From Eledone cirrhosa (lineage: Eukaryota), in contig OZ024742.1 of assembly GCA_964016885.1 (NCBI GenBank), positions 373,550,001-373,614,000 on the forward strand: a DNA stretch of 64,000 nucleotides. Direction: 5' to 3'. A program made the position numbers and the translations under genes. The notes under the pieces are model-generated. The model was given only the letters and a program-made list of their open reading frames with translations, did no database searches and was not told where the DNA came from. This document shows positions 18,001-59,862 of this stretch, piece after piece. Numbering within the stretch: the stretch's first letter is position 1; the number at the start of each line of letters is the position of its first letter.

Positions 18001-20042
18001 ATACCTCCGATAGTCCCACAAGCCACATATTAGTCTGATAGTCTTACAATCCACATACCTCTGATAGTCCCACAAGCCACATACCTCTAATAGTCCCACA
18101 AGTCACATACCTCTGATAGTCCCACAAGTCACATACCTCTGATAGTCCCACAAGCCACATATTAGTCTGATAGTCCCACCAGCCACATATTAGTCTAATA
18201 GTCCCACAAACCACATAGTTCTGATAGTCCCACAAGCCACATACTTCTGATAGTCCCACAAGCCACATACTGCTGATAGTCCCACAAGCCACATATTGGT
18301 TTGATAGTCCCACAAGTCACATACCTCTGATAGTCCCATAAGCCACATATTAGTCTGATAATCCCACAAGCCACATACATCTGATAGTCCCACAAGCCAC
18401 ATACCTCTGATAGTCCCACAAGCCACATACCTCTGATAGTCCCACAAGCCACATACCTCTGATAGTCCCACAAGCCACATATTAGTCTGATAGTCCCACA
18501 GGTCACATACCTCTGATAGTCCCACAAGCCACATACCTCTGATAGTCCCACAAGCCACATATTAGTGTGATAGTCCCACAAGCCACATACCTCTGATAGT
18601 CCCACAAGCCACATACCTCTGATAGTCCCACAAGCCACATATTCGTCTGATAGTCCCACAAGCCACATACCTCTGATAGTCCCACAAGCCAAATACCTCT
18701 GATAGTCCCACAAGTCACATACCTCCGATAGTCCCACAAGCCACATATTAGTCTGATAGTCTTACAAGCCACATACCTCTGATAGTCCCACAAGCCACAT
18801 ACCTCTAATAGTCCCACAAGTCACATACCTCTGATAGTCCCACAAGTCACATACCTCTGATAGTCCCACAAGCCACATATTAGTCTGATAGTCCCACAAG
18901 CCACATATTAGTCTAATAGTCCCACAAACCACATACTGCGGATAGTCCCACAAGCCACTTATTGGTCTGATAGTCCCACAAGCCACATACTTCTGATAGT
19001 CCCACAAGCCACATACTGCGGATAGTCCCACAAGCCACTTATTGGTCTGATAGTCCCACAAGTCACATACCTCTGATAGTCCCATAAGCCACATATTAGT
19101 CTGATAGTCCCACAAGCCACATACATCTGATAGTCCCACAAGCCACATACCTCTGATAGTCCCACAAGCCACATACCTCTGATAGTCCCACAAGCCACAT
19201 ACCTCTGATAGTCCCACAAGCCACATATTAGTCTGATAGTCTCACAGGTCACATACATCTGATAGTCCCACAAGCCACATACCTCTGATAGTCCCACAAG
19301 CCACATATTAGTGTGATAGTCCCACAAGCCACATACCTCTGATAGTCCCACAGGCCACATACTGCTGATAGTCCCACAAGACACATATTAGTCTGATAGT
19401 CCCACAAGTCACATACCTCTGATAGTCCCACAACCCACATACCTCTGATAGTCCCACAAGCCACATATTAGTCTGATAGTCCCACAGGTCACATACCTCT
19501 GATAGTCCCACAAGCCACATACCTCTGATAGTCCCACAAGCCACATACCTCTGATAGTCCCACAAGTCACATACCTCTGATAGTCCCACAAGCCACATAC
19601 CTCTGATAGTTCCACAAGCCACATACCTCTGATAGTCCCACAAGCCACATATTAGTCTGATAGTCCCACAAGTCACATACCTCTGATAGTCCCACAAGCT
19701 ACATATTAGTCTGATAGTCCCACAAGTCACATACCTCTGATAGTCCCACAAGCCACATAACTCTGATAGTCCATCAAGCCACATACCTCTGATAGTCCCA
19801 CAAGTCACATATCTCTGATAGTCCCACAAGCCACATATTAGTATGATTGTCCCACAAGCCACATGCCTCTGATAGTCCCACAAGCCACATATTAGTCTGA
19901 TAGTCCCACAACTCACATACCTCTGATAGTCCCACAAGCCACATATTAATCTGATAGTCTCACAAGCCACATACCTCTGATAGTCCCACAAGCCACATAT
20001 TAGTCTGATGGTCCCACAAGCCACATACCTCTGATAGTCCCA
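1..20042. repeat. Minisatellite/satellite array of interleaved 26-bp and 28-bp units (~750 units; continues off the left edge)
   Basis: Units GATAGTCCCACAAGCCACATACCTCT (26) and GATAGTCCCACAAGCCACATATTAGTCT (28) with recurrent point variants and no unique spacers. Confidence 0.98.
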
Positions 20043-23000
20043 GTTCACCCTGTAATCTGGTACTGTTGGAGTCATGATAAAATACACCCAGTTCACCCTG
20101 TAATGTGCTACTGTTGGAGTCATGATAAATTACACCCAGTTCACCCTGTAATGTGCTCCTGTTGAAGTCATGATAAAATACACCCAGTTCACCCTGTAAT
20201 GTGCTAGTGCTTGAGTCATGATAAAACGCACCCAGTTCACCCTGTAATGTGCTACTGTTGGAGTCATGATAAAATACACCCAGTTCACCCTGTAATGCGT
20301 TACTGTTGGAGTCATGATAAAATACACCCAGTTCACCCTGTAATGTGCTATTGTTGGATTCATGATAAAATACACCCAGTTCACCCAGTAATGTGCTAGT
20401 GGTGGAGTTCACCTTGTAATGTGCTAGTGGTGGAGTCATGATAAAATAGACCCAGCTCACCCTGTAATGTGCTACTGTTGGAGTCATGATAAAATACACC
20501 CAGTTCACCCTGTAATGTGCTACTGTTGGAGTCATCATAAAATACACCCAGTTCACCCTGTAACGTGCTAGTGCTGGAGTCATAATAAAATACAACCAGT
20601 TCAACCTGTAATGTGCTAGTGCTGGAGTCATGATAAAATACACCCAATTCACCCTGTAATGTGCTACTGTTGGAGTCGTGATAAAATACACCCAGTTCAC
20701 CCTGTAATGTGCTACTGTTGGAGTCATGATAAAACACACCTAGTTCACCCTGTAATGTGCTACTGTTGGAGTCATGATAAAACACACCTAGTTCACCCTG
20801 TAATGTGCTAGTGCTGGAGTCATGATAAAACACACCCAGCTCACCCTGTAATGTGCTAGTGGTGTAGTCATGATAAAATACACCCAGTTCACCCTGTAAT
20901 GTGCTACTGTTGGAGTCATGATAAAATACACCCAGTTCACCCTGTAATGTGCTAGTGCTGGAGTCATGATAAAACACACCCAGTTCACCCTGTAATGTGC
21001 TACTGTTGGAGTCATGATAAAATACACCCAGTTCACCCTGTAATGTGCTACTGTTGGAGTCATGATAAAATACACCCAGTTCACCCTGTAATGTGCTACT
21101 TTTGGAGTCAAGATAAAATACACCCAGTTCACCCTGTAATTTGCTCCTGTTGGAGACATGATAAAATACACCCAGTTCACCCTGTAATGTGCTACTATTG
21201 GAGTCATGATAAAATACACCCAGTTCACCCTGTAATGTGCTACTGTTGGAGTCATGATAAAATACACCCAGTTCACCCTGTAATGTGCTACTGTTGGAGT
21301 CATGATAAAATACACCCAGTTCACCCTGTAATGTGCTAGTGCTGGAGTCATGATAAAATACACCCAGTTCACCCTGTAATGTGCTCCTGTTGGAGTCATG
21401 ATAAAATACACCCAGTTCACCCTGTAATGCGTTACTGTTGGAGTCATGATAAAATTAACCCAATTCACCCTGTAATGTGCTACTGTTGGAGTCATGTTAA
21501 AACACACCCAGCTCACCCTGTAATGTGCTAGTGGTGTAGTCATGATAAAATACACCCAGTTCACCCTGTAATCTGCTACTGTTGGAGTCATGATAAAATA
21601 CACCCAGTTCACCCTGTAATGTGCTAGTGCTGGAGTAATGATAAAACACACCCAGTTCACCCTGTAATGTGCTAGTGCTGGAGTCATGATAAAATACACC
21701 CAGTTCACCCTGTAATGTGCTAGTGCTGGAGTAATGATAAAACACACCCAGTTCACCCTGTAATGTGCTACTGTTGGAGTCATGATAAAATACACCCAGT
21801 TCACCCTGTAATGCGTTACTGTTGGAGTCATGATAAAATACACCCAGTTCACTCTGTAATGTGCTAGTGCTGGAGTCATGATAAAATACACCCAGTTAAC
21901 CCTGTAATGTGCTAGTGCTGGAGTCATGATAAAATACACCCAGTTCACCCTGTAATCTGCTAGTGCTGGAGTCATGATAAAATACACTCAGTTCACCCTG
22001 TAATGTGCTAGTGCTGGAGTCATGATAAAATACACTCAGTTCACCCTGTAATGTGCTAGTGCTGGAGTCATGATAAAATACACCCAGTTCACCCTGTAAT
22101 GTGCTAGTGCTGGAGTCATGATAAAATACACCCAGTTCACCCTGTAATGTGCTACTGTTGGAGTCATGATAAAATACACCCAGTTAACCCTGTAATGTGC
22201 TAGTACTCAAGTCATGATAAAATAGACCCAGTTCACCCTGTAATCTGCTACTGTTGGAGTCATGATAAAATACACCCAGTTCACCCTGTAATGTGCTACT
22301 TTTGGAGGCATGATAAAATACACCCAGTTAACCCTGTAATGTGCTAGTACTCAAGTCATGATAAAATAGACCCTGTTCACCCTATAATGTGCTACTGTTG
22401 GAGTCATGATAAAATACACCCAGTTAACCCTGTAATGTGCTAGTACTCAAGTCATGATAAAATAGACCCAGTTCACCCTGTAATCTGTTACTGTTGGAGT
22501 CATGATAAAATACACCCAGTTCACCCTGTAATGTGCTACTGTTGGAGTCATGATAAAATACACCCAGTTCACCCTGTAATGTGCTACTGTTGGAGTCATG
22601 ATAAAATACACCCAGTTCACCCTGTAATGTGCTAGTGCTGGAGTCATGATAAAACACTCCCACTTCACCCTGTAATGTGCTACTGTTGGAGTCATGATAA
22701 AATACACCCAGTTCACCCTGTAATGTGCTACTGTTGGAGTCATGATATAATACACCCAGTTCACCGTGTAATGTGCTACTGTTGGAGTCATGATAAAATA
22801 CACCCAGTTCACCCTGTAATGTGCTAGTGCTGGAGTAATGATAAAACACCCAGTTCACCCTTTAATGTGCTACTGTTGGAGTCATGATAAAATACACCCA
22901 GTTCACCCTGTAATGTGCTCCTGTTGGGGTCATGATAAAATACACCCAGTTCACCCTGTAATGCGTTACTGTTGGAGTCATGATAAAATACACCCAATTC

Positions 23001-25937
23001 ACCCTGTAATGTGATAGTGCTGGAGTCATGATAAAATACACCCAGTTCACCCTGTAATGTGCTCCTGTTGGAGTCATGATAAAATACACCCAGTTCACCC
23101 TGTAATGTGCTACTGTTGGAGTCATGATAAAATACACCGAGTTCACCCTGTAATGTGCTACTTTTGGAGTCATGATAAAATACACCCAGTTCACCCTGTA
23201 ATGCGTTACTGTTGGAGTCATGATAAAATACACCCAGTTCACCCTGTAATGTGCTAGTGCTGGAGTCATGATAAAATACACCCAGTTCACCCTGTAATGT
23301 GCTAGTGCTGGAGTCATGATATAATACACCCAGTTCACCCTATAATGTGCTACTGTTGGAGTCATGATAAAATACACCCAGTTCACCCTGTAATGTGCTA
23401 CTTTTGGAGTCATGATAAAATACACCCAGTTCACCCTGTAACGTGCTAGTGCTGGAGTCATGATAAAACACACCCAGTTCACCCTGTAATGTGCTAGTGG
23501 TGGAGTCATGATAAAATACACCCAGTTCACCCTGTAATGTGCTAGTGCTGGAGTCATGATATAATACACCCAGTTCACCCTGTAATGTGCTACTGTTGGA
23601 GTCATGATAAAATACACCCAGTTCACCCTGTAATCTGCTACCGTTGAAGTCATGATATAATACACCCAGTTCACCCTGTAATGTGCTAGTGCTGGAGACA
23701 TGATAAAATACAACCAGTTCACCCTGTAAAGTGCTACTGTTGGAGTCATGATAAAATACACCCAGTTCACCCTGTAATCTGCTACTGTTGAAGTCATGAT
23801 ATAATACACCCAGTTCACCCTGTAATGTGCTAGTGCTGGAGTCATGATAAAATACAACCAGTTCACCCTGTAATGTGCTACTGTTGGAGTCATGATAAAA
23901 TACACCCAGTTCACCCTGTAATGTGCTAGTGGTGGAGTCATGATAAAATACACCCAGTTCACCCTGTAATGTGCTAGTGCTGGAGTAATGATAAAACACA
24001 CCCAGTTCACCCTGTAATGTGCTAGTGCTGGAGTCATGATATAATACACCCAGTTCACCCTGTAATGTGCTACTGCTGGAGTCAATATAAAATACACCCA
24101 CTTCACCCTGTAATGTGCTACTGTTGGAGTCATGATATAATACACCCAGTTCACCCTGTAATGTGCTACTGTTGGAGTCATGATAAAATACACCCAGTTC
24201 ACCCTGTAATGTGCTACTGTTGGAGTCATGATAAAATACACCCAGTTCACCCTGTAATGTGCTACTGTTGGAGTCATGATATAATACACCCAGTTCACCC
24301 TGTAATGTGCTAGTGCTGGAGTCAATATAAAATACACCCACTTCACCCTGTAATGTGCTAGTACTGGAGTCATGATAAAATACACCGAGTTCACCCTGTA
24401 ATGTGCTACTTTTGGAGTCATGATAAAATACACCCAGTTCACCCTGTAATGCGTTACTGTTGGAGTCATGATAAAATACACCCAGTTCACCCTGTAATGT
24501 GCTAGTGCTGGAGTCATGATAAAATACACCCAGTTCACCCTGTAACGTGCTAGTGCTGGAGTCATGATATAATACACCCAGTTCACCCTATAATGTGCTA
24601 CTGTTGGAGTCATGATAAAATACACCCAGTTCACCCTGTAATGTGCTACTTTTGGAGTCATGATAAAATACACCCAGTTCACCCTGTAACGTGCTAGTGC
24701 TGGAGTCATGATAAAACACACCCAGTTCACCCTGTAATGTGCTAGTGGTGGAGTCATGATAAAATACACCCAGTTCACCCTGTAATGTGCTAGTGCTGGA
24801 GTCATGATATAATACACCCAGTTCACCCTGTAATGTGCTACTGTTGGAGTCATGATAAAATACACCCAGTTCACCCTGTAATCTGCTACTGTTGAAGTCA
24901 TGATATAATACACCCAGTTCACCCTGTAATGTGCTAGTGCTGGAGACATGATAAAATACAACCAGTTCACCCTGTAAAGTGCTACTGTTGGAGTCATGAT
25001 AAAATACACCCAGTTCACCCTGTAATCTGCCACTGTTGAAGTCATGATATAATACACCCAGTTCACCCTGTAATGTGCTAGTGCTGGAGTCATGATAAAA
25101 TACAACCAGTTCACCCTGTAATGTGCTACTGTTGGAGTCATGATAAAATACACCCAGTTCACCCTGTAATGTGCTAGTGCTGGAGTAATGATAAAACACA
25201 CCCAGTTCACCCTGTAATGTGCTAGTGCTGGAGTCATGATATAATACACCCAGTTCACCCTGTAATGTGCTACTGCTGGAGTCAATATAAAATACACCCA
25301 CTTCACCCTGTAATGTGCTACTGTTGGAGTCATGATATAATACACCCAGTTCACCCTGTAATGTGCTACTGTTGGAGTCATGATAAAATACACCCAGTTC
25401 ACCCTGTAATGTGCTACTGTTGGAGTCATGATAAAATACACCCAGTTCACCCTGTAATGTGCTACTGTTGGAGTCATGATATAATACACCCAGTTCACCC
25501 TGTAATGTGCTAGTGCTGGAGTCAATATAAAATACACCCACTTCACCCTGTAATGTGCTAGTACTGGAGTCACGATAAAATACACCCAGTTCACCCTGTA
25601 ATGTGCTACTGTTGGAGTCATGATAAAATACACCCACTTCACCCTGTAATGTGCTACTTTTGGAGTCATGATAAAACACACCCAGTTCACCCTGCAATGT
25701 GCTAGTGCTGGAGTCATTATAAAATACACCCTGTTCACCCTGTAATCTGCTACTGTTGGAGTCATGATAAAATACACCCAGTTCACCCTGTAATGTGCTA
25801 CTGTTGGAGTCATGATAAAATACACCCAGTTCACCCTGTAATGTGCTAGTGCTGGAGTCATGATAAAATACACCCAGATCACCCTGTAATGTGATAGTGC
25901 CAATGTTCTCATACAACACACCCAGTTCACTCTGTAA
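20039..25937 (+). repeat. 48-bp tandem array (~120 units) homologous to the RTE 3'UTR internal repeat
   Basis: Unit CACCCAGTTCACCCTGTAATGTGCTACTGTTGGAGTCATGATAAAATA, with a TAGTGCTGG variant. A 1200-bp (25-unit) higher-order duplication is shown by identical ORFs at 24065 and 25265. Confidence 0.97.
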
Positions 25938-25942
25938 GGCAA

Positions 25943-25958
25943 TGGTGGTGGTGGTGGT
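25943..25958. repeat. Short (GGT)n microsatellite at the end of the 48-bp array
   Basis: TGGTGGTGGTGGTGGT directly visible. Confidence 0.8.
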
Positions 25959-26071
25959 AGTTTTTTGTCCTATTATTATTAAATTCCTTTTACCATTTTC
26001 ACAAAAGCTATTTTTTTATCAGTTATTAACTGCAAATATATTCATATAATTAATTTTTGGCCAACTTTTAC

Positions 26072-26651
26072 TTAATCCCCTTCATACCAACCCTCCAAAA
26101 CTGCCCCTGTTTATGAAACACGACCTCCCATTTTATATTTTAAAGTGTTCCTATTTAAATTTAAATATTTTTAGCATAATTTGATATTTTGTAAAGTTAT
26201 TTATGAATACCAACTTAATAAGTTCCATACATGGCTAATGTCTACCAAATATAAACAACATCTTTGACTACATGGAAGCTAGGAAAATATTGAACAACGG
26301 AAACTCCTCCTCCTCCTCCTTCTTCTTCACCCACTTATGCCGGAGAGGGTCGTGGGGGCAGAGTCCTCAAACACTCCTTCCAGTGGGTCCTGTCAGAAGC
26401 AACCATCTCCAACTGATCTGGCTGGATTTCCAATCGAGACTGGCCAAGCTCGTCGATGTTATCCAGCCAGCTGTAAGGAGTACTTCATACTTCTCCTACT
26501 CTGTCACGGCTTACTAGCTCTATACAGACGTTTAGATTGATTAAATAAATAAATAATGAAATAAATAATAATCTTAATAAATCCTTCCGATATTTTCATT
26601 AATTGATTGAAATAGAGTGTATTTCATTAGAAAGATGGCCGAAAGAGTTAA
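26072..26651. mobile_element. Possible degenerate piggyBac-like MITE (TTAA ends)
   Basis: Left end TTAATCCCCTTCATACCA and right end GATGGCCGAAAGAGTTAA form a decayed TTAA-CCC...GGG-TTAA type inverted pair around an AT-rich interior. The match is poor. Confidence 0.35.
26304..26487 (-). mobile_element. 3' fragment of an Expander/Rex3-like RTE-clade LINE
   Basis: The minus strand translates TPYSWLDNIDELGQSRLEIQPDQLEMVASDRTHWKECLRTLPPRPSPA*, resembling the RTE C-terminus (W..I...RL.I....LE.VA.DR..W...L..LPPRP). A very short UTR and a (GAA)n(GGA)n tail follow. Confidence 0.75.
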
Positions 26652-27314: not shown

Positions 27315-27591
27315 TCATCATCATCATTATCATCATTATCATCATCAACATCATCATCACATCATCACCGCTGCTGCCACCATCACCACCATCATCATCA
27401 TCACTATCATCATCATCACCACCATCATCATCATTACCACCATCATCATCACCACCACCACCATCATCCTCATCATCATTATCATCATCACCACCACCAT
27501 CATCATCAGCACCACCATCATCACCTCCAACATCATCATCACCACCACCACCATCATCGTCACCATCATCACCATCATCCTCATCATCATC
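27315..27591. repeat. Compound (CAT)n/(CAC)n microsatellite, the expanded (GAT)n tail of a minus-strand retroposon
   Basis: Directly visible. It abuts a minus-strand copy of the RTE-type 3'UTR, whose other copies also end in (GAT)n. Confidence 0.92.
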
Positions 27592-27781
27592 TTTACCATT
27601 TAATATTCATTTTTCCATGCTAACATGGGTTAGACAAATTGTTCCATTGTGAAATAAGCTAGGTTAGATGATCATGTCTTGCTCACACAGAACTGGTTTT
27701 GGCTAGGTTTCTACAGGTGGATGCCCTTCCTAACACTGACCACATTTATAGTGTGTACTGGGTGCTTTTTGTTGTGACACC
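27592..27781 (-). mobile_element. Older RTE-type 3' tail (LINE or SINE), interrupted at 27781 by the RTE insertion and continuing as the 49-bp array
   Basis: The reverse complement contains GTGTTAGGAAGGGCATCCACCTGTAGAAA...GAGCAAGACA...CCCATGTTAGCATGGAAA, homologous to 30190-30330 and 58600-58727. Confidence 0.88.
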
Positions 27782-30045
27782 AGAGGCCAACCTGGAGAAG
27801 AAAGATCTGGAAGCTGAAAGACCCCTCGGCCAGTAACAGATTTAAAGATATTCTACTCAACGCCTACGACAGTAAAGAAGAACAGATAGAGACATTCAAT
27901 GTAGAAGAGCACTGGGAGTTCCTAAAAAATAACTTACTAGAGGCGACGGATGAGATCTGTGGCTGGAGTAAGACCTCAAGCAGGAGGAGAGTGACTTGGT
28001 GGTGGAACAATAAGGTAGATGAGGCAGTTAAGGCCAAGAGACAGGCATGGTAAGAATGGAAGAATGGGTGGAGCAGGGTACATTACATAGAAACCAAGAG
28101 GGAAGCTAGGCGACGAGTATACTTAGCTAGGAGGGAAGCAGAGGATAGAAAATTCAAGCATGTTCTGCAACGTGAGGTGTTCAAAATTGCGAGGCAGTGT
28201 GTCAGAGAGAATTGTGATGTCATTGGAGAGAAGTGTATCCGGAATGATAAAGGTGAGCTTGCTCTCACAAATGCTGAGAAGAAAGATGCATGGCAGCGCC
28301 ATTATGATAGATTACTAAATGAGAATGCATGGGAAGAAGAGACCCTACCCCAAGTAGACCCTATAGAGGGGCCAGCAGTACAAGTCAGCAGCAGCGTAGT
28401 AAGTAAGGCCATCAAAGATATGAAGACGGGGAAGGCAATTGGTCCATCGGGTATAGCTGCCGAGATGCTGAAGGCATCTGGGTCTGTAGGTCACACTATA
28501 ACCACACGTATTGTTAACCAGGTAATACTAGGTGTCATACCAAAAGATTGGTGCAGTAGCATCATTGTCAACTGCTACAAAGGTAAAGGTGATGCACTCG
28601 ATAGAGGAAACTATAGTGGTATAAAGCTGATGGACCAGGTCATGAAAGTAACAGAAAGAGTTATAGCCCAGTTGATTAGGGACCGGGTGAAACTAGATGA
28701 GATGCAATTTGGGTTTGTACCAGGAAGAGGCACCACTGATGCCCTCTTCCTTGTGAGGCAGTTACAGGAAAAGTACCTAGCTAAAAGTAAGCCACTCTAC
28801 CTGGCATTCGTCGATCTCGAGAAAGCCTTTGACAGAGTTCCACGTGCTGTAATCTGGTGGGCTCTTAGAAAACTAGGAGTAGATGAATGACTTGTGAAAG
28901 CTGTATAAGCCATGTATAGGGGAGCAGTCAGCAAAGTTAGGATTAGCAATGAGTATAGCGAGGAATTTAGCGTACAGGTTGGTGTCCACCAGGGCTCTGT
29001 TCTTAGCCCTCTCCTGTTCATCATAGTCCTGCAGGCAATAACGGAGGAGTTTAAGACCGGATGCCCATGGGAACTCCTGTATGCTGATGACCTCGCACTT
29101 ATAGCTGAATCTATGGTATAACTAGAGAAGAAATTCCAAACTTGGAAGCAGGGACTAGAAAGAAAGCGTCTCAAAGTCAACAGGACAAAGACTAAGGTCC
29201 TTGTATGTAGAAGAGGAAATAGAACCCAGATCCGCTCAGGGAAATGGCCTTGCTCAGTATGTAGGAAAGGTGTAGGTAGGAACTCTATTCTCTGCCCCAA
29301 ATGCAAACAATGGGTACACAAGAGATGTAGCGGGATCTCAGGAAGCTTAATTAAGAATGTAGGCTTCACATGCAGCAGCTGTGCTGGGACAGCAAGCAGC
29401 AAACAGCCACAGGAAGCAAGTACCACCAATCTCTGGGAGGGCTCTGTAGAAAGATTAGACAGCTTCTGCTATCTAGGTGACCGAATTAGCAGCGGAGGTG
29501 GGTGTTCAGAAAGTACAATAACTAGGGTAAGAACGGGATGGAAGAAGTTTAGGGAACTACTACCACTGCTAGCTGCAAAAGGCTTCTCCCTCAAAATGAA
29601 AGGCAGACTGTATGATGCGTGTATACGAACAGCAATGTTACATGGTAGTGAGACCTGGGCGCTGAAGGTGGAAGACTTACGTAGATTAGAGAGAAACGAA
29701 GCCTGCATGCTACGATGGATGTGTAATATTAATATACGAGAACGACAAAGCATAAATGAATTGAGAGAGAGACTAAGCATAAGAGGAATCAAATGCTGTG
29801 TGCAGAAGAGGCGGTTGCGTTGGTATGGACATGTGATGCATATGAAGGATGACAGCTGCATAAAAAGGTGCAGAGCACTAGAAGTCAATGGAAACCGCGG
29901 AGTGGGGAGACCCAAGAAGACCTGGGATGAGGTGTTAAAAGCCGACCTCACCCAATTACACCTCTCAAAGGCGATGACACATGACCGTGACCTCTGGCGT
30001 CACGCAGTAATACAGAGTACCCGACCTCCCATGGGTACAAGCTGA
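27781..30045 (+). pseudogene. Disabled RTE ORF (linker, RT with PHD-like finger, C-terminus)
   Basis: One reading frame joins track ORFs 28177-28890, 28912-29121 and 29596-30045. Premature stops at 28051, 28888, 28906 and 29119. Confidence 0.93.
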
Positions 30046-30350
30046 AGCATATAGACAATATGCCCCCACACCCCCCACTGCAAGGCGGTCGTGGAGGTGC
30101 CACGGCAAAAAAGCACCCAGCCCACACTGTAAAGTGGACGTGTAGGTGCCACGGAAAAAAAGCACCCAGCACTCACTGTAAATGAGGTTGGTGTTAGGAA
30201 GGGCATCCAGCTGCAGAAATCAAGCCAGAATAAGTTCCTGTATGAGTAAGACAAGGTCAGCCGACCAGACACTGCCCACAACAGGACAACCCATCGAACC
30301 CATGCTAGCGTGGAAGAATGGACGTAAAATGGTGATGATGATGATGATGA
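27782..30350 (+). mobile_element. 5'-truncated RTE-clade non-LTR retrotransposon
   Basis: RT motifs (YKGKGD, QFGFVPGRGTTDA, DLEKAFDRV, VHQGSVLSP, YADD, YLG), RTE C-terminal motifs (RRLRWYGHV, GRPKKTW, DRDLWR), a ~300-bp 3'UTR and a (GAT)n tail. No endonuclease domain is present. Confidence 0.95.
30065..30185 (+). repeat. ~2.5 copies of a 49-bp internal repeat in the RTE 3'UTR
   Basis: CACCCAG recurs at 30114 and 30163 (period 49). Unit CACCCAGCCCACACTGTAAAGTGGACGTGTAGGTGCCACGGAAAAAAAG. Confidence 0.85.
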
Positions 30351-33300
30351 CCTACATGACCACTTTATAGTGTGTACTGGGTGCTTTTTGTCGTGAAACC
30401 TACATGACCACTTGACAGTGTGTACTGGGTGCCTTGTTGTCATGACACCTACATGACCTCTTGACAGTGTGTACTGGGTGCCTTGTTGTCATGACCCCTA
30501 CATGACCTCTTGACAGTGTGTACTGGGTGCCTTGTTATCATGACCCCTACATGACCACTTGACAGTGTGTACTGGGTGCCTTGTTGTCATGACACCTACA
30601 TGACCTCTTGACAGTGTGTACTGGGTGCCTTGTTGTCATGACACCTACATGACCACTTGACAGAGTGTACTGGGTGCCTTGTTGTCATGACACCTACATG
30701 ACCTCTTGACAGTGTGTACTGGGTGCCTTGTTGTCATGACACCTACATGACCACTTGACAATGTGTACTGGGTGCCTTGTTGTCATGACACCTACATGAC
30801 CACTTGACAGAGTGTACTGGGTGCCTTGTTGTCATGATACCTACATGACCTCTTGACAGTGTGTACTGGGTGCCTTATTGTCATGACACCTACATGACCT
30901 CTTGACAGTGTGTACTGGGTGCCTTGTTGTCATGATACCTACATGACCTCTTGACAGTGTGTACTGGGTGCCTTGTTGTCATGATACCTACATGACCTCT
31001 TGACAGTGTGTACTGGGTGCCTTGTTGTCATGACACCTACATGACCTCTTGACAGTGTGTACTGGGTGCCTTGTTGTCATGACACCTACATGACCACTTG
31101 ACAGTGTGTACTGGGTGCCTTGTTGTCATGATACCTACATGACCTCTTGACAGTGTGTACTGGGTGCCTTGTTATCATGATACCTACATGACCTCTTGAC
31201 AGTGTGTACTGGGTGCCTTGTTGTCATGACACCTACATGACCTCTTGACAGTGTGTACTGGGTGCCTTGTTGTCATGATACCTACATGACCTCTTGACAG
31301 TGTGTACTGGGTGCCTTGTTGTCATGACACCTACATGACCTCTTGACAGTGTGTACTGGGTGCCTTGTTGTCATGACACCTACATGACCTCTTGACAGTG
31401 TGTACTGGGTGCCTTGTTGTCATGACACCTACATGACCTCTTGACAGTGTGTACTGGGTGCCTTGTTGTCATGACACCTACATGACCTCTTGACAGTGTG
31501 TACTGGGTGCCTTGTTGTCATGACACCTACATGACCTCTTGACAGTGTGTACTGGGTGCCTTGTTGTCATGACACCTACATGACCTCTTGACAGTGTGTA
31601 CTGGGTGCCTTGTTGTCATGACACCTACATGACCACTTGACAGTGTGTACTGGGTGCCTTGTTGTCATGACACCTACATGACCACTTGACAGTGTGTACT
31701 GGGTGCCTTGTTGTCATGATACCTACATGACCTCTTGACAGTGTGTACTGGGTGCCTTGTTGTCATGACACCTACATGACCTCTTGACAGTGTGTACTGG
31801 GTGCCTTGTTGTCATGACACCAACATGACCTCTTGACAGTGTGTACTGGGTGCCTTGTTGTCATGACACCTACATGACCTCTTGACAGTGTGTACTGGGT
31901 GCCTTGTTGTCATGACACCTACATGACCACTTGACAATGTGTACTGGGTGCCTTGTTGTCATGACACCTACATGACCTCTTGACAGTGTGTACTGGGTGC
32001 CTTGTTGTCATGACACCTACATGACCACTTGACAGTGTGTACTGGGTACCTTGTTGTCATGATACCTACATGACCACTTGACAGTGTGTACTGGGTGCCT
32101 TGTTGTCATGATACCTACATGACCTCTTGACAGTGTGTACTGGGTGCCTTGTTGTCATGACACCTACATGACCACTTGACAATGTGTACTGGGTGCCTTG
32201 TTGTCATGACACCTACATGACCACTTGACAGTGTGTACTGGGTACCTTGTTGTCATGATACCTACATGACCTCTTGACAGTGTGTACTGGGTGCCTTGTT
32301 GTCATGACACCTACATGACCTCTTGACAGTGTGTACTGGGTGCCTTGTTGTCATGACACCTACATGACCACTTGACAGTGTGTACTGGGTACCTTGTTGT
32401 CATGACACCTACATGACCACTTGACAGTGTGTACTGGGTGCCTTGTTGTCATGACACCTACATGACCTCTTGACAGTGTGTACTCGGTGCCTTGTTGTCA
32501 TGATACCTACATGACCTCTTGACAGTGTGTACTCGGTGCCTTGTTGTCATGACACCTACATGACCTCTTGACAGTGTGTACTCGGTGCCTTGTTGTCATG
32601 ATACCTACATGACCTCTTGACAGTGTGTACTCGGTGCCTTGTTGTCATGACACCTACATGACCACTTGACAGTGTGTACTGGGTGCCTTGTTGTCATGAC
32701 ACCTACATGACCTCTTGACAGTGTGTACTGGGTGCCTTGTTGTCATGATACCTACATGACCTCTTGACAGTGTGTACTGGGTGCCTTGTTGTCATGACAC
32801 CTACATGACCTCTTGACAGTGTGTACTGGGTACCTTGTTGTCATGACACCTACATGACCTCTTGACAGTGTGTACTGGGTGCCTTGTTGTCATGATACCT
32901 ACATGACCTCTTGACAGTGTGTACTGGGTGCCTTGTTGTCATGACACCTACATGACCTCTTGACAGTGTGTACTGGGTGCCTTGTTGTCATGATACCTAC
33001 ATGACCTCTTGACAGTGTGTACTGGGTGCCTTGTTGTCATGACACCTACATGACCACTTGACAGTGTGTAATGGGTACCTTGTTGTCATGACACCTACAT
33101 GACCTCTTGACAGTGTGTACTGGGTGCCTTGTTGTCATGACACCTACATGACCTCTTGACAGTGTGTAATGGGTACCTTGTTGTCATGACACCTACATGA
33201 CCTCTTGACAGTGTGTACTGGGTGCCTTGTTGTCATGACACCTACATGACCTCTTGACAGTGTGTACTGGGTGCCTTGTTGTCATGACACCTACATGACC

Positions 33301-36300
33301 TCTTGACAGTGTGTACTGGGTGCCTTGTTGTCATGACACCTACATGACCTCTTGACAGTGTGTACTCGGTGCCTTGTTGTCATGATACCTACATGACCTC
33401 TTGACAGTGTGTACTGGGTGCCTTGTTGTCATGACACCTACATGACCACTTGACAGTGTGTAATGGGTACCTTGTTGTCATGACACCTACATGACCTCTT
33501 GACAGTGTGTACTGGGTGCCTTGTTGTCATGACACCTACATGACCTCTTGACAGTGTGTAATGGGTACCTTGTTGTCATGACACCTACATGACCTCTTGA
33601 CAGTGTGTACTGGGTGCCTTGTTGTCATGACACCTACATGACCTCTTGACAGTGTGTACTGGGTGCCTTGTTGTCATGACACCTACATGACCTCTTGACA
33701 GTGTGTACTGGGTGCCTTGTTGTCATGATACCTACATGACCTCTTGACAGTGTGTACTCGGTGCCTTGTTGTCATGATACCTACATGACCTCTTGACAGT
33801 GTGTACTGGGTGCCTTGTTGTCATGACACCTACATGACCTCTTGACAGTGTGTACTGGGTGCCTTGTTGTCATGATACCTACATGACCTCTTGACAGTGT
33901 GTACTCGGTGCCTTGTTGTCATGATACCTACATGACCTCTTGACAGTGTGTACTGGGTGCCTTGTTGTCATGACACCTACATGACCTCTTGACAGTGTGT
34001 ACTCGGTGCCTTGTTGTCATGATACCTACATGACCTCTTGACAGTGTGTACTGGGTGCCTTGTTGTCATGACACCTACATGACCTCTTGACAGTGTGTAC
34101 TGGGTGCCTTGTTGTCATGACACCTACATGACCTCTTGACAGTGTGTACTGGGTGCCTTGTTGTCATGATACCTACATGACCTCTTGACAGTGTGTACTC
34201 GGTGCCTTGTTGTCATGATACCTACATGACCTCTTGACAGTGTGTACTGGGTGCCTTGTTGTCATGACACCTACATGACCTCTTGACAGTGTGTACTGGG
34301 TGCCTTGTTGTCATGACACCTACATGACCTCTTGACAGTGTGTACTGGGTGCCTTGTTGTCATGATACCTACATGACCTCTTGACAGTGTGTACTCGGTG
34401 CCTTGTTGTCATGATACCTACATGACCTCTTGACAGTGTGTACTGGGTGCCTTGTTGTCATGACACCTACATGACCTCTTGACAGTGTGTACTGGGTGCC
34501 TTGTTGTCATGATACCTACATGACCTCTTGACAGTGTGTACTCGGGTGCCTTGTTGTCATGATACCTACATGACCTCTTGACAGTGTGTACTGGGTGCCT
34601 TGTTGTCATGACACCTACATGACCTCTTGACAGTGTGTACTGGGTGCCTTGTTGTCATGACACCTACATGACCTCTTGACAGTGTGTACTGGGTGCCTTG
34701 TTGTCATGACACCTACATGACCTCTTGACAGTGTGTACTGGGTGCCTTGTTGTCATGACACCTACATGACCACTTGACAGTGTGTACTGGGTGCTTGTTG
34801 TCATGATACCTACATGACCTCTTGACAGTGTGTACTGGGTGCCTTGTTGTCATGACACCTACATGACCTCTTGACAGTGTGTACTGGGTACCTTGTTGTC
34901 ATGATACCTACATGACCACTTGACAGTGTGTACTGGGTGCTTGTTGTCATGATACCTACATGACCTCTTGACAGTGTGTACTGGGTGCCTTGTTGTCATG
35001 ACACCTACATGACCTCTTGACAGTGTGTACTGGGTGCCTTGTTGTCATGACACCTACATGACCACTTGACAGTGTGTACTGGGTGCCTTGTTGTCATGAT
35101 ACCTACATGACCACTTGACAGTGTGTACTGGGTGCCTTGTTGTCATGACACCTACATGACCTCTTGACAGTGTGTACTGGGTGCCTTGTTGTCATGACAC
35201 CTACATGACCACTTGACAGTGTGTACTGGGTGCCTTGTTGTCATGATACCTACATGACCTCTTGACAGTGTGTACTGGGTGCCTTGTTGTCATGACACCT
35301 ACATGACCTCTTGACAGTGTGTACTGGGTGCCTTGTTGTCATGATACCTACATGACCTCTTGACAGTGTGTACTCGGTGCCTTGTTGTCATGACACCTAC
35401 ATGACCTCTTGACAGTGTGTACTGGGTGCCTTGTTGTCATGACACCTACATGACCTCTTGACAGTGTGTACTGGGTGCCTTGTTGTCATGATACCTACAT
35501 GACCTCTTGACAGTGTGTACTCGGTGCCTTGTTGTCATGATACCTACATGACCTCTTGACAGTGTGTACTGGGTGCCTTGTTGTCATGACACCTACATGA
35601 CCTCTTGACAGTGTGTACTGGGTACCTTGTTGTCATGATACCTACATGACCTCTTGACAGTGTGTACTGGGTGCCTTGTTGTCATGATACCTACATGACC
35701 TCTTGACAGTGTGTACTGGGTGCCTTGTTGTCATGACACCTACATGACCTCTTGACAGTGTGTACTGGGTGCCTTGTTGTCATGACACCTACATGACCTC
35801 TTGACAGTGTGTACTCGGTGCCTTGTTGTCATGACACCTACATGACCTCTTGACAGTGTGTACTGGGTGCCTTGTTGTCATGACACCTACATGACCTCTT
35901 GACAGTGTGTACTGGGTGCCTTGTTGTCATGACACCTACATGACCTCTTGACAGTGTGTACTCGGTGCCTTGTTGTCATGACACCTACATGACCTCTTGA
36001 CAGTGTGTACTGGGTGCCTTGTTGTCATGACACCTACATGACCTCTTGACAGTGTGTACTGGGTGCCTTGTTGTCATGACACCTACATGACCTCTTGACA
36101 GTGTGTACTGGGTGCCTTGTTGTCATGACACCTACATGACCTCTTGACAGTGTGTACTCGGTGCCTTGTTGTCATGACACCTACATGACCTCTTGACAGT
36201 GTGTACTGGGTGCCTTGTTGTCATGACACCTACATGACCTCTTGACAGTGTGTACTGGGTGCCTTGTTGTCATGACACCTACATGACCTCTTGACAGTGT

Positions 36301-39300
36301 GTACTCGGTGCCTTGTTGTCATGACACCTACATGACCTCTTGACAGTGTGTACTGGGTGCCTTGTTGTCATGACACCTACATGACCTCTTGACAGTGTGT
36401 ACTGGGTGCCTTGTTGTCATGACACCTACATGACCTCTTGACAGTGTGTACTGGGTGCCTTGTTGTCATGACACCTACATGACCACTTGACAGTGTGTAC
36501 TGGGTGCCTTGTTGTCATGATACCTACTGACCACTTGACAGTGTGTACTGGGTGCCTTGTTGTCATGATACCTACATGACCACTTGACAGTGTGTACTGG
36601 GTGCCTTGTTGTCATGACACCTACATGACCACTTGACAGTGTGTACTGGGTGCCTTGTTGTCATGATACCTACTGACCACTTGACAGTGTGTACTGGGTG
36701 CCTTGTTGTCATGATACCTACATGACCTCTTGACAGTGTGTACTGGGTGCTTGTTGTCATGATACCTACATGACCTCTTGACAGTGTGTACTGGGTGCCT
36801 TGTTGTCATGATACCTACATGACCTCTTGACAGTGTGTACTGGGTGCCTTGTTGTCATGATACCTACTGACCACTTGACAGTGTGTACTGGGTGCTTGTT
36901 GTCATGATACCTACATGACCTCTTGACAGTGTGTACTGGGTGCCTTGTTGTCATGATACCTACTGACCACTTGACAGTGTGTACTGGGTGCCTTGTTGTC
37001 ATGATACCTACTGACCACTTGACAGTGTGTACTGGGTGCTTGTTGTCATGATACCTACATGACCTCTTGACAGTGTGTACTGGGTGCCTTGTTGTCATGA
37101 TACCTACTGACCACTTGACAGTGTGTACTGGGTGCCTTGTTGTCATGATACCTACTGACCACTTGACAGTGTGTACTGGGTGCTTGTTGTCATGATACCT
37201 ACATGACCTCTTGACAGTGTGTACTGGGTGCCTTGTTGTCATGATACCTACTGACCACTTGACAGTGTGTACTGGGTGCTTGTTGTCATGATACCTACAT
37301 GACCTCTTGACAGTGTGTACTGGGTGCCTTGTTGTCATGATACCTACATGACCACTTGACAGTGTGTACTGGGTGCCTTGTTGTCATGATACCTACTGAC
37401 CACTTGACAGTGTGTACTGGGTGCTTGTTGTCATGATACCTACATGACCTCTTGACAGTGTGTACTGGGTACCTTGTTGTCATGATACCTACATGACCTC
37501 TTGACAGTGTGTACTGGGTGCCTTGTTGTCATGATACCTACATGACCACTTGACAGTGTGTACTGGGTGCCTTGTTGTCATGATACCTACTGACCACTTG
37601 ACAGTGTGTACTGGGTGCCTTGTTGTCATGATACCTACATGACCTCTTGACAGTGTGTACTGGGTGCCTTGTTGTCATGATACCTACTGACCACTTGACA
37701 GTGTGTACTGGGTGCTTGTTGTCATGATACCTACATGACCTCTTGACAGTGTGTACTGGGTGCCTTGTTGTCATGATACCTACTGACCACTTGACAGTGT
37801 GTACTGGGTGCTTGTTGTCATGATACCTACATGACCTCTTGACAGTGTGTACTGGGTGCCTTGTTGTCATGATACCTACTGACCACTTGACAGTGTGTAC
37901 TGGGTGCTTGTTGTCATGATACCTACATGACCTCTTGACAGTGTGTACTGGGTACCTTGTTGTCATGATACCTACTGACCACTTGACAGTGTGTACTGGG
38001 TGCTTGTTGTCATGATACCTACATGACCTCTTGACAGTGTGTACTGGGTGCCTTGTTGTCATGACACCTACATGACCTCTTGACAGTGTGTACTGGGTGC
38101 CTTGTTGTCATGACACCTACATGACCTCTTGACAGTGTGTACTGGGTGCCTTGTTGTCATGATACCTACATGACCTCTTGACAGTGTGTACTGGGTGCCT
38201 TGTTGTCATGATACCTACATGACCTCTTGACAGTGTGTACTGGGTGCCTTGTTGTCATGACACCTACATGACCTCTTGACAGTGTGTACTGGGTGCCTTG
38301 TTGTCATGACACCTACATGACCTCTTGACAGTGTGTACTGGGTGCCTTGTTGTCATGACACCTACATGACCTCTTGACAGTGTGTACTGGGTGCCTTGTT
38401 GTCATGACACCTACATGACCTCTTGACAGTGTGTACTGGGTGCCTTGTTGTCATGACACCTACATGACCACTTGACAGTGTGTACTGGGTGCCTTGTTGT
38501 CATGATACCTACATGACCACTTGACAGTGTGTACTGGGTGCCTTGTTGTCATGATACCTACATGACCTCTTGACAGTGTGTACTGGGTGCCTTGTTGTCA
38601 TGACACCAATATGACCTCTTGACAGTGTGTACTGGGTGCCTTGTTGTCATGACACCTACATGACCACTTGACAGTGTGTACTGGGTGCCTTGTTGTCATG
38701 ATACCTACATAACCACTTGACAGTGTGTACTGGGTGCCTTGTTGTCATGACACCTACATGACCACTTGACAGTGTGTACTGGGTGCCTTGTTGTCATGAC
38801 ACCTACATGACCACTTGACAGTGTGTACTGGGTGCCTTGTTGTCATGATACCTACATGACCACTTGACAGTGTGTACTGGGTGCCTTGTTGTCATGATAC
38901 CTACATGACCTTTTAACAGAGTGTACTTGGTTCTTTGTTGTCATGACACCTACATGACCTCTTGACAGTGTGTACTGGGTGCCTTGTTGTCATGATACCT
39001 ACATGACCTCATGACCGTGTGTACTGGGTTACTTGTTGTCATGACACCTACATGACCTCTTGACAATGTGTACTGGGTGCCTTGTTGTCATGACACCTAC
39101 ATGACCACTTGACAGTGTGTACTGGGTGCCTTGTTGTCATGATACCTACATGACCTCATGACCGTGTGTACTGGGTTACTTGTTGTCATGACACCTACAT
39201 GACCTCTTGACAATGTGTACTGGGTGCCTTGTTGTCATGACACCTACATGACCACTTGACAGTGTGTACTGGGTGCCTTGTTGTCATGATACCTACATGA

Positions 39301-40112
39301 CCTCTTGACAGTGTGTACTGGGTACCTTGTTGTCATGATACCTACATGACCTCTTGACAGTGTGTAATGGGTACCTTGTTGTCATGACACCTACATGACC
39401 TCTTGACAGTGTGTACTGGGTGCTTTGTTGTCATGATACCTACATGACCTCTTGACAGTGTGTACTGGGTGCCTTGTTGTCATGACACCTACATGACCTC
39501 TTGACAGTGTGTAATGGGTACCTTGTTGTCATGACACCTACATGACCTCTTGACAGTGTGTACTGGGTGCCTTGTTGTCATGACACCTACATAACCTCTT
39601 GACAGTGTGTACTGGGTGCCTTGTTGTCATGACACCTACATAACCTCTTGACAGTGTGTACTGGGTGCCTTGTTGTCATGATACCTACATGACCACTTGA
39701 CAGTGTGTACTGGGTGCCTTGTTGTCATGATACCTACATGACCACTTGACAGTGTGTACTGGGTGCCTTGTTGTCATGATACCTACATGACCTCTTAACA
39801 GAGTGTACTTGGTTCCTTGTTGTCATGACACCTACATAACCACTTGACAGTGTGTACTGGGTGTCATGACACCTACATGACCTCTTGACAGTGTGTACTG
39901 GGTGCCTTGTTGTCATGATACCTACATGACCACTTGACAGTGTGTACTGGGTGCCTTGTTGTCATGATACCTACATGACCACTTGACAGTGTGTACTGTC
40001 TGCTTGTTGTCATAATACCTACATGACCTCTTGACAGTGTGTACTGGGTGCCTTGTTGTCATGATACCTACATGACCACTTGACCACTTGACAGTGTGTA
40101 CTGGGTGCCTTG
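30351..40112 (-). repeat. 49-bp tandem array (~200 units), reverse-complement homologue of the RTE 3'UTR repeat
   Basis: Plus-strand unit GACACCTACATGACC(T/A)CTTGACAGTGTGTACTGGGTGCCTTGTTGTCAT. Very homogeneous. Confidence 0.98.
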
Positions 40113-40272
40113 TTTTCCAAGGGAAAGGCAATGGGCAATACAGTTTGGCACCAGCTGAGTAAACTGGAGTTACGTGAAATGAAGTGTCTTGCTCAACACA
40201 TCACCCTGTCAAACAATCAAACTCACAACCTATCAACTGCAATCCCAATACTCTAACCACTAAGCCATGTGC
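40113..40272 (-). mobile_element. 5' part of a tRNA-derived SINE (Pol III A/B boxes plus CORE-like segment)
   Basis: Minus strand: A box TGGCTTAGTGG (40257-40267), decayed B box GAGTTTGATT (40215-40224), then GTGTTGAGCAAGACACTTCATTTCAC, which is CORE-like. Confidence 0.75.
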
Positions 40273-40549
40273 ATGTATAAAAATCATATTCTCCATATTG
40301 AAGTTTTTCTCTTCTCATTTCTTCTTAATTTTGCCAGAACTTCCAATTCTTCTACAATTTATGCTCTGCTAAATGTGATAACATTTATGTAATGCCAAAA
40401 ATATGATAAAATTTCAATATGAAATATAAAATATCTTGTTATACTTTGAGATATACTTTGCCAATAAAATATCTTGTACTTTGAGAGGGCCACAAAAATA
40501 TATGTACCAGTTGGATTTCACTTTGGTTTTATTATTGATGGTGGATCTT

Positions 40550-47425: not shown

Positions 47426-47432
47426 TGTTTCT

Positions 47433-47438
47433 TTTATT
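47433..47438 (-). promoter_or_regulatory. Polyadenylation signal of the Tx1-like element
   Basis: AATAAA 7 nt from the element's 3' end (AATAAAAGAAACA). Confidence 0.7.
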
Positions 47439-47689
47439 TGCCACTAGGGCATCAAAAGTGGGACAAGTAGAAAGGGGGGAGTTTACACAAAAAGGCGTCC
47501 TCAATAAGGAGGAGGCAATAACAAAATATAAAAATAAAATAGGATATAACAAAAAATAAAATTCATAACAAAATCCTCAATAAAGGGGAGGCGCCTTGGG
47601 GGGTCGCACACACCCCCGAAAAAAGTGTGCAACCCTTCTCCTCAGGAGCACAGAGAAGGGGTGCTCCCTTGGTCTTTCATCTTCCTCAC

Positions 47690-50600: not shown

Positions 50601-51127
50601 TCGGCCAGGTCAAATCGACCGATTAACCCTTTGAGGCTATTACACCCCTCTCTATCGGGGCAGGCCCCTACGTAGTCCCAGCGTGCATCTAGGATACCAT
50701 TCCAGTCCCCCACTAATAGCAAGGAGCGGGACGTCCCTAGAAAAGTCTCCAGACGATGGAAGAAGTCCGGCCGCATTGACCCGAAAGGGCCGTAGGCGGC
50801 TACCAACCTAAACGCTCCGCCTTTACCACTGCCAAGGTCCAGAACCACTAGTCGACCCTCCGGGTCCAAATGTACCATCTGTGTTGCGAGACCCAGATGT
50901 TTTTGCAGCAGAACGACAACTCCACCCCCACCTCCGGGCTGACAGAGAGATGCGTGCATCTCAAAGTCATCAAAGGTGGGGGCCAGCTGTCGCACGTTGC
51001 TGATCCGTGCCTCGCAAATAACCATCACATCTATACGTTGTGACCTGAGGTCATTTAGAAGCATTGCTTGCTTCCAAGTTGAGCCCAGGCCACGCGCATT
51101 TAAACAGCCTACTCTTAGCATAGCCAT
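47690..51127 (-). CDS. LINE ORF2p: APE endonuclease, reverse transcriptase and C-terminal CCHC finger (1145 aa from the first ATG)
   Basis: EN motifs GCLNARGL, GDWN, YLDRF, SDH; linker GPGYWKLN; RT motifs FRPITLLN, LDQSKAFDRVDH, RQGCPLS, YADD; finger CPRC...ETVTHALVHC. The track's start at 51151 is a GTG, and the first ATG is at 51127. Confidence 0.95.
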   Translation of the reverse strand: MAMLRVGCLNARGLGSTWKQAMLLNDLRSQRIDVMVICEARISNVRQLAPTFDDFEMHASLCQPGGGGGVVVLLQKHLGLATQMVHLDPEGRLVVLDLGSGKGGAFRLVAAYGPFGSMRPDFFHRLETFLGTSRSLLLVGDWNGILDARWDYVGACPDREGCNSLKGLIGRFDLADRYRLDFPTAPTWTWANRSGSSRSYLDRFLVRIKDKDFLSCPKMRMVGYSDHKLVTCMVNLDRTYRQGPGYWKLNLSLPASRAYRNRISTLVKERLTGAIVNSRWWVSLKREIRVVSIEFSKVLAADRNRKERELIDRVEEAIRSGDVARVLASRTALSQFFDAKHEGCVVRSKIRALGNEGTKAVSWARMTEANSGTKSTIWSLRDLDGRAILEPKQMCEAFQRLFARLFGRGGEPVGNVDFGPYLDGLPRLSDREAKSCEEPISAAEIEDVLSQCGKRKSLGLDGLPYELYLAMPDLFPNLLEVVYCNWQQNGRIPCTVTKGVVTLVRKDENKGDEISNFRPITLLNTELQILAKVLAKRLALVVGNLVGDAQTCAIPSRSIHDNLHLMRYIIERVGNEPGFGGALINLDQSKAFDRVDHGYLDAVLAAAGFGPVFRGWITAMHSSRICSRVKVNGYLSEPFKIARSIRQGCPLSSLLYVLTLEPLLRKLELLQGIPLEPGLRKAVSAYADDVTVMVSTASEIEAVGTLLEEYEKLTGAKLNRDKSIGLQLGTWRGRPMPSDGIVGRWTEGPVKLLGVWFGPDLQVEKIWVEVMNRVFALTQKWASCKLSLKGRAEVANTYIASVIYYRLTVVPCPRETLTKMERAFFQFLWKRRAPMVRRSICCQHPSKGGLGMPWLMMRKHALRLRHLYVFLTGQPVWASFVRRTFPRLVSLTELQSWVKQRFRKLGAWHTECAQALTALWQADPVISGDSTATFYRGLVRSRCDDALGEALDMEEDELASLFGRTFSPGPMDNFQKSLAWQCYRGALPVRERLYRHGRPGRDPAKKICPRCVCDEETVTHALVHCSGVADLWGYVEQLLSRVGPIRLTTESIVMIKPPPPFKDEAEAVFLCVIAMAKEVVWWRRLKGLMSGTFLSGQQLVRFFRYHFGRRIRMEREVLHPSRFYERWVKVARMARVNGPSLYIRL

Positions 51128-51151
51128 GTTGGTGGTGAAGAGAAAAGGCAC

Positions 51152-51486
51152 TTACCTCTCTGCGTCCCGGGTATCGGGCTGCACAATTTCCATTAGGGTG
51201 GGGGATGGGTTGTTGGTTGGGGTGGTGGTTTGTGGAAGTGTGGGGGCATCAGTGTGTTGTGTGGTTGGGGAGCTTGGAGTTGTGTGGGTGTTTGGGGAGG
51301 GGGTGGGATAGTTTTTTAGGAGGACGCGGTTAATGGGCCCGACGCAGGGGGGACCCACGTCCTCTTTAAAATTGTTTTTTAAAGTTTTATAGGTGTCCTG
51401 TGGGGCCTTAATCATTTTGAGGTGGGGGAAATCCCCTGCCTGGGTGAAGTTAGGCCCTTGTGTTTTTATTAGATTGTTGTTGTACA
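51152..51486 (-). pseudogene. Probable C-terminal remnant of LINE ORF1 (Pro/Thr-rich), cut by the 5' truncation
   Basis: An open frame runs from the insertion boundary to a TAA 24 nt before the ORF2 ATG. No diagnostic domain is visible. Confidence 0.6.
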
Positions 51487-58384: not shown

Positions 58385-58736
58385 TAGGCATCTCTAACAA
58401 AACACACCCCCGTCCCACCACCCCCACCCCATCCACACCGCCCCTTTCAATGTAAAGTTATGTTGGTGCTACAACATCCAGGCCGAAACAAATGAGATCG
58501 TGTAGGTGTCACGACAAAAAAATACACAGTCCACGCTGTAATGTGGCCGTGTAGGCAACACGGTAAAAACCTCCCAGTCCCACACTGTAAATGTGGTTGG
58601 TGTTAGGAAGGGCATCCAGCTGTAGAAAACCTGCCAGACAGTCCTATGCGAGCAAGACAACCATTCTTGCCTCAAGTCGGAAAACTCCCGTTCAAACCCG
58701 TGCAAGTGTGGAACATGGACGTTAAACGATGATGAT
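58385..58736 (+). mobile_element. 5'-truncated RTE-type 3'UTR copy inserted in the 64-bp array
   Basis: About 2 copies of the internal repeat, then GTGGTTGGTGTTAGGAAGGGCATCCAGCTGTAGAAA...TGGACGTTAAAC and (GAT)3. Homologous to 30100-30350. Confidence 0.9.
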
Positions 58737-59862
58737 AGTAATGTTACTGACACAGCTCTTTACACCTTCTCTGACTCTACTAATAGTTTACTAACTAGAT
58801 AGTAATGTTACTGTCACAGCTCTTTACACCTTCTCTGACTCTACTAATAGTTTACTAACTAGATAGTAATGTTACTGACACAGCTCTTTAAACCTTCTCT
58901 GACTCTACTAATAGTTTACTAACTAGATAGTAATGTTACTGACACAGCTCTTTAAACCTTCTCTGACTCTACTAATAGTTTACTAACTAGATAGTAATGT
59001 TACTGTCACAGCTCTTTACACCTTCTCTGACTCTACTAATAGTTTACTAACTAGATAGTAATGTTACTGTCACAGCTCTTTACACCTTCTCTGACTCTCC
59101 TAATAGTTTACTAACTAGATAGTAATGTTACTGTCACAGCTCTTTACACCTTCTCTGACTCTACTAATAGTTTACTAACTAGATAGTAATGTTACTGTCA
59201 CAGCTCTTTACACCTTCTCTGACTCTACTAATAGTTTACTAACTAGATAGTAATGTTACTGACACAGCTCTTTACACCTTCTCTGACTCTACTAATAGTT
59301 TACTAACTAGATAGTAATGTTATTGTCACAGCTCTTTACACCTTCTCTGACTCTAGTAATAGTTTACTAACTAGAGAGTAATGTTACTGACACAGCTCTT
59401 TACACCTTCTCTGACTCTACTAATAGTTTACTAACTAGATAGTAATGTTACTGTCACAGCTCTTTACACCTTCTCTGACTCTACTAATAGTTTACTAACT
59501 AGATAGTAATGTTACTGACACAGCTCTTTACACCTTCTCTGACTCTACTAATTGTTTACTAACTACACAGTAATGTTACTGACACAGTTCTTTACTGCTT
59601 CTCTGACTCTACTAATAGTTTACTAACTAGATATTAATGTTACTGTTAAAACTCTTTACACCTTCTCTGATTCTACTAATAGTTTACTAACTAGATAGTA
59701 ATGTTACTGTTAAAACTCTTTACACTTTCTCTGACTCTACTAATAGTTTACTAACTAGATAGTAATGTTACTGTTAAAACTCTTTACACATTCTCTGATT
59801 CTACTAATAGTTTACTAACTAGATAGTAATGTTACTGTTAAAACTCTTTACACATTCTCTAA
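58734..59862. repeat. 64-bp tandem array, right block (~17 units), diverging at its end
   Basis: Same unit. The last four copies carry TGTTAAAACTC variants. Confidence 0.97.

Follow-up and report, generated by a model that had tools for sequence, protein, structure and literature searches.

The window (i.e. the whole stretch of 64,000 nucleotides of Eledone cirrhosa DNA that was analysed) lies 5 Mb from the end of contig C3 in a 3.0-Gb genome and consists almost entirely of tandem repeats. Its features around two arrays of 48–49-bp units, termed A and B, are given below in window coordinates.

20039..25937, plus strand: array A, 123 units of 48 bp, without an attached retroposon head or tail
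20039..20042, plus strand: direct junction of array A with a 26-bp satellite; four common bases, CCCA, fit both units (TRF overlap)
20378..20436, plus strand: shortened unit in array A, 20 bp missing, giving a 28-bp period
23117..25030, plus strand: recent block duplication in array A, lag of 26 units (1248 bp)
25873..25937, plus strand: decayed terminal unit and last partial unit of array A, likely an old seed edge
25938..25960, plus strand: GGT-rich stretch 3' of array A, as a tail remnant not distinguishable from chance
27315..27777, minus strand: 3' end of the carrier element of array B, with the last unit, an in-register tail and an expanded (GAT)n
27778..30349, plus strand: 5'-truncated LINE with reverse transcriptase and a PHD-like finger, frame broken, inserted in the last units of array B
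30350..40110, minus strand: array B, 200 units of 49 bp, of a different lineage of unit from array A
40115..40275, minus strand: 5' half of a tRNA-type SINE adjoining array B, from a different family in which the 3' half has no unit
58385..58737, plus strand: short copy of a LINE 3' end bearing two units and a tail, inserted in a 64-bp satellite

Array A is regularly spaced, with 120 of the 122 intervals between its 123 anchors being 48 bp, and its units have a mean identity of 95.2% to their own majority unit. The duplicated block is present as copies of 666 bp at 23117 and 24365 with at most two mismatches. Mean pairwise divergence between units is 7.9% as compared to 3.5% in array B, and the terminal unit of array A carries 13 differences from the array majority. 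Block duplication, unit divergence and a decayed end are the kind of traces left by unequal exchange within a locus. The majority unit differs at six sites (five nearly fixed and one polymorphic) from a unit found genome-wide, hereafter F. The last partial unit has kept the ancestral base at one A-private site, and two ancestral unit types alternate even now within the array. The first-pass annotation had proposed that the two arrays were each homogenised locally, which was borne out by an A-private 20-mer for which 76 of 77 genome matches fall inside array A. A short-read contig, possibly from the assembly's own sample, crosses the end of the array (25826–26163) with 0 differences; RAD-seq runs (X4–X6) gave no coverage of this end. 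No function of array A is indicated; a 1035-codon open reading frame on the minus strand (22862–25969) was rejected as a gene, being a product of 48 bp equalling 16 codons.

The 3' end of array A had been described as CTGTAA followed by a GGT-rich stretch, in the register at which an RTE element leaves its repeat. The array indeed stops after CTGTAA (offset 17), but the GGT stretch was not confirmed as a retroposon exit. Against the two tail exits of the window, its local score was equalled by 27% and 60% of shuffles and, among random genomic 30-mers, by 2% and 9%; a profile of the tail drawn from 50 copies gave no match there beyond the unit itself. The register carries no weight as evidence; array ends are scattered over the unit with 4 of 41 at offsets 16–19. 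No terminal unit of array A reaches into a parent element. The 26-, 34- and 64-bp satellites were rejected as derivatives of the unit (shuffle p 0.04–0.92 in six tests, no profile match); the 26-bp satellite continues for at least 20 kb upstream of the window and the 34-bp satellite for at least 20 kb downstream (L067–L070). A 69-bp array at 59980–60368 (minus strand) showed a weak alignment to the unit (shuffle p 0.0005 and 0.0015 among eight tests) and no match by unit profile; it is possibly a third, older derivative.

In array B, 168 of 199 intervals are 49 bp and the units are 97.9% identical to their own majority unit. Its tail is in register, faces array A and was cut off from the array by insertion of the LINE at 27778..30349, whose 3' UTR holds 2.3 unit copies at 30072–30182. 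Interpretation of array B as a complete tRNA SINE was rejected, the tRNA head belonging to another SINE family. In four cases (L033, L040, L058 and 27778–30349 of the window), the 3' end of a unit array is immediately adjoined by the 3' end of an antisense LINE or SINE. Elsewhere in the window, a LINE on the minus strand (47427–51490) within the 64-bp satellite has an unbroken frame of 1153 codons with endonuclease, reverse transcriptase and zf-RVT, and about 11 bases of the satellite unit flank it on both sides. By eye, the insertion at 58385–58737 shows no target duplication and a loss of about 16 bases from the satellite unit, and its (GAT)n tail merges into GAT of the target.

The unit is found in the 3' ends of LINEs in one to three copies ahead of a common tail ending in (GAT)n. 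Other carriers are a tRNA-headed SINE, an old, decayed family that has an entry of its own, and a position upstream of LINE coding sequence, where the unit sits just behind a stretch that by eye resembles a conserved RTE 5'-UTR domain. A Pfam search of the carrier LINE returned RVT_1 only; we take this LINE to be of RTE type from its short microsatellite tail and 5'-UTR motif. From these sequences, the unit carriers look like fusions of a 5' UTR with a 3' tail. At six loci (L073, L075, L090 and L094–L096, at ~1300–1800 from the oriented start), the unit and an exit occur upstream of LINE coding sequence, and by eye these copies sit inside a longer repeat of ~89 bp. Dispersed copies that have the tail or the entry are 65–78% identical to array A. 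Since array A has neither, its retroposon origin is argued from identity of its unit to arrays with a tail or entry.

The abundance of the unit was estimated from 58 stretches of 10 kb (i.e. 580 kb), in which small chromosomes are over-represented. A unit profile gave 99 matches in this sample versus 0 in reversed DNA. These matches fall in 42 unit loci, of which 23 have a single unit, 16 have two to four units and three have at least eight. Extrapolation from the 42 loci gives ~217,000 unit loci in the genome and 15,000 arrays (3,200–45,000), a number of arrays that is likely high because the over-sampled small chromosomes hold all three arrays.

The 48-bp unit and the reverse complement of the 49-bp unit had been reported to match at 35 of 48 positions. 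This was reproduced as the best ungapped match and exceeds 3000 dinucleotide shuffles (22.9 ± 1.5, maximum 30); both short motifs said to be shared with the tail copy at 58515–58545 are present there. A genome-wide search with four array A units gave 1394 candidates, of which 39 were scored and 36 distant loci fetched. Identity to array A was 81–88% for 37 distant arrays from these 36 loci (one distant array with a 31-bp period was excluded), as compared to 71% for array B, 73% for the first unit of the 58385..58737 copy (at 58525) and 65% for the last unit of the adjacent LINE. As the 37 arrays were picked by likeness to array A, these values mean that closer relatives than array B exist and do not describe the family average. 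The closest single pair of an A unit and a B unit is 78% identical. In a tree of 52 rows and 48 columns, array A lies within a starred set of 17 rows (96/81) and array B outside it. The tree of units called for by the first-pass annotation thus places array A in a set without array B, but an AU test on those 48 columns does not reject a clade of A plus B (p 0.151).

Features of the parent elements survive in relatives of array A. A decayed tail in register is retained by 10 of 38 A-type arrays, though not by array A, and several A-type arrays retain the entry of the old dispersed family (947 exact 20-mer matches). About 310 kb from the window, a further unit array of at least 208 copies (L250, C3:373,926,500–373,936,499) shares 73% identity with A and 80% with B. 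At L040 (112–2144), an array of ~80-bp units from LINE coding sequence adjoins a 31/48-bp unit array.

Array A is probably a minisatellite that grew in place from an old multi-unit retroposon copy, separately from array B, which is of another lineage. Growth in place is suggested by the decayed edge unit together with the two ancestral unit types that are still mixed. The seed would have been an old multi-unit copy of the 48–49-bp repeat carried by the genome-wide RTE-type retroposons; it would have grown by unequal exchange and slippage at its locus, and its own tail and entry would have been lost. The copy from which array B expanded was likely of another lineage.

One observation runs against growth in place: loci of the F lineage resemble one another more than growth from decayed seeds predicts. 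Nine arrays on six contigs have an identical majority unit, while the tails attached to F-type arrays are only 61–65% alike (65% among eight tails). Divergence from F was measured for 16 loci picked by a 28-base F pattern, of which the 13 with at least three units were scored. The F-type arrays differ at 9 of 260 free sites (3.5%) versus 118 of 675 (17.5%) for single copies, a comparison set picked by similar patterns; ancestral-type arrays differ at 10 of 60 free sites (n = 3 arrays). The F pattern has 1483 genome matches and the ancestral pattern 215. On C2, among the matches listed, the last 7 Mb hold 11 of 15 F loci versus 0 of 20 ancestral-type loci. The region C2:409.7–413.7 Mb contains eleven separate F-type loci (L259–L269) in both orientations and with unrelated flanks. 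Segmental duplication was rejected as the source of this cluster, the flanks not being colinear.

Judged from sequence comparison, the uniformity of the F lineage hints at exchange from array to array. It may be, though we lean against it, that a variant of the unit became free of its carrier and now moves from chromosome to chromosome as a minisatellite, replacing old retroposon remnants by homology, array A being a drifted member. If so, there would be many dispersed arrays near chromosome ends with an almost identical unit and with tails decayed by a third. A specific form of exchange, which we consider unlikely for array A, is that a fragment of another F-type array seeded it by ectopic gene conversion or by circular DNA inserting at short homology, and that local drift followed. 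The landing site would then have been an old remnant or the edge of the 26-bp satellite, leaving the retroposon as a remote ancestor only. Such seeding would fit the low divergence of F-type arrays beside that of single copies with their poorly conserved tails, the clustering of the listed C2 loci amid non-colinear flanks, and the 4-base homology at the junction of a tailless array A. It fits less well with the decayed unit in which array A ends, as this is expected of a seed in place, and neither circular DNA nor a conversion tract was seen. Every F locus had been selected for its similarity to A or F, and the ancestral-type control comprises three arrays. Arrays would also be skewed towards a multi-unit master if expansion took place only in copies whose neighbouring units stayed alike. 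Furthermore, at 20 further loci picked by likeness to another array, and so from another seed, each array carries its own majority unit, with 62–85% identity to F.

Why a multi-unit copy should expand in place was addressed in the 580-kb sample. The first-pass annotation had suggested that the unit is intrinsically prone to expansion. Expansion was found at 3 of the 42 unit loci, whereas the remaining parts of these elements (21,841 bp) gave 0 arrays (Fisher p 0.0006). The rate is also ~20-fold above background, and it is based on three arrays that are all on the over-sampled small chromosomes. The unit therefore does expand more often than other DNA, but the likely reason is that it is tandem in its carriers to begin with, 19 of the 42 loci having at least two units. 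Tandem repeats make up 205,914 of the 580,000 sampled bases (35%), and other sequences gave rise to 28 of the 31 complex arrays (35 of 66 arrays having been dropped as low-complexity).

A role for the unit's own sequence, in which an imperfect hairpin would drive expansion, is very unlikely. A stem is formable in 89% of pair cells of 40 array units, the ~20-fold excess would be consistent with such a driver and the F variant is in long arrays in 4 of 20 cases versus 0 of 30 for the ancestral variant (p 0.02). Against this, folding energies are the same as those of shuffles (z +0.24 for A and -0.18 for B) and of unexpanded copies (51 array units versus 79 dispersed units, p 0.89), covariation does not exceed that of shuffles (326 and 322 of 500) and the majority unit of array A breaks one stem pair. 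No ribozyme family in Rfam was found among 100 matches in 10 loci. A pre-existing tandem state is the likelier cause of expansion than special folding, and the tandem copies already present, not a special DNA structure, would be what makes the unit expand.

It is barely credible that an inversion split one ancestral array into A and B, or that B or the 3' UTR of the adjacent LINE served as the template for A: the arrays are 4.4 kb apart in opposite orientation with 71–73% identity and the AU test tolerates their grouping, but 37 distant arrays resemble A more closely than B does, the in-register tail of B lies on the side facing A, the spacer and outer flanks have no mutual similarity, and opposite pairing of A-type with B-type arrays recurs at L042 and L046. 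Splitting by inversion, named by the first-pass annotation as one outcome that would overturn its reading, is thus largely excluded by the closer distant arrays and the tail of B. Neither the spacing nor the orientation that it had stressed is special, as a second unit-family array occurs within a few kb at 5 of the 36 distant loci, in opposite orientation in three of these five. Arrays A and B expanded separately, each from its own lineage of the unit, and are not products of one local seed or of an inversion. The earlier proposal of two separate amplifications of one seed holds for the separate expansions and the shared ancestral unit, but not for a single seed.

Birth of satellites from parts of retroposons is already known, and array A is one more case. 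The closest parallel comes from the squamate SINE-derived satellites sSat1–3, for which Vassetzky et al. (2023, PMC10702118) describe many loci where a portion of a retroposon is tandemly repeated, frequently with a longer end that extends into the element and with minor variants lacking such an end. They also describe long loci that are uniform within and between loci and have a subtelomeric preference. Array A resembles these in having a unit that shares homology with a portion of dispersed SINEs or LINEs, in being a long, head-to-tail, locally homogenised array, and in belonging to a family with many loci in which ends are favoured (the window being 5 Mb from the C3 end, and 11 of 15 F loci on C2, among the matches listed, lying in its last 7 Mb). 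In contrast to the squamate satellites, the Eledone unit is already tandem in its carriers and common to LINE ends and several SINE families, and the extended end is absent from array A while present in B and in 10 of 38 sister arrays. By analogy, array A would fit the definition of an sSat-type satellite save for the missing extended end.

Other systems match particular aspects. For human tandem repeats derived from transposable elements, Ahmed and Liang (2012, PMC3389668) report local expansion after insertion and, at LTR12 hotspots, a tandem repeat that probably pre-existed in the source element. The pre-existing tandem is alike in array A, whereas the carriers here are non-LTR elements and arrays reach 100–200 units or more. 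In the Drosophila Rsp-like and 1.688 euchromatic satellites, as described by Sproul et al. (2020, PMC7403614), a young repeat enters older clusters at short homology, with unequal exchange within loci in addition. These satellites offer a model for spread between loci, though with no retroposon origin there, and spread in Eledone would be deduced from uniformity of sequence. Bipartite non-autonomous RTE elements and RTE-derived SINE bodies, including the Ceph domain, are treated by Kojima (2018, PMC5786205). By eye, the stretch upstream of the unit resembles the Ceph domain as given there, while the unit itself is not that domain, and three short unit or tail motifs had no match in the supplement of that paper. 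No paper on this repeat family in octopus or other cephalopods was found in a search from which subscription journals mostly lay outside.

With ~200,000 copies of one unit (as extrapolated from 42 loci) present at one, two, three or many repeats, this genome provides a natural experiment on how fast satellites arise depending on the number of pre-existing tandem copies, on lineage and on chromosome position, and on whether dispersed arrays exchange sequence.
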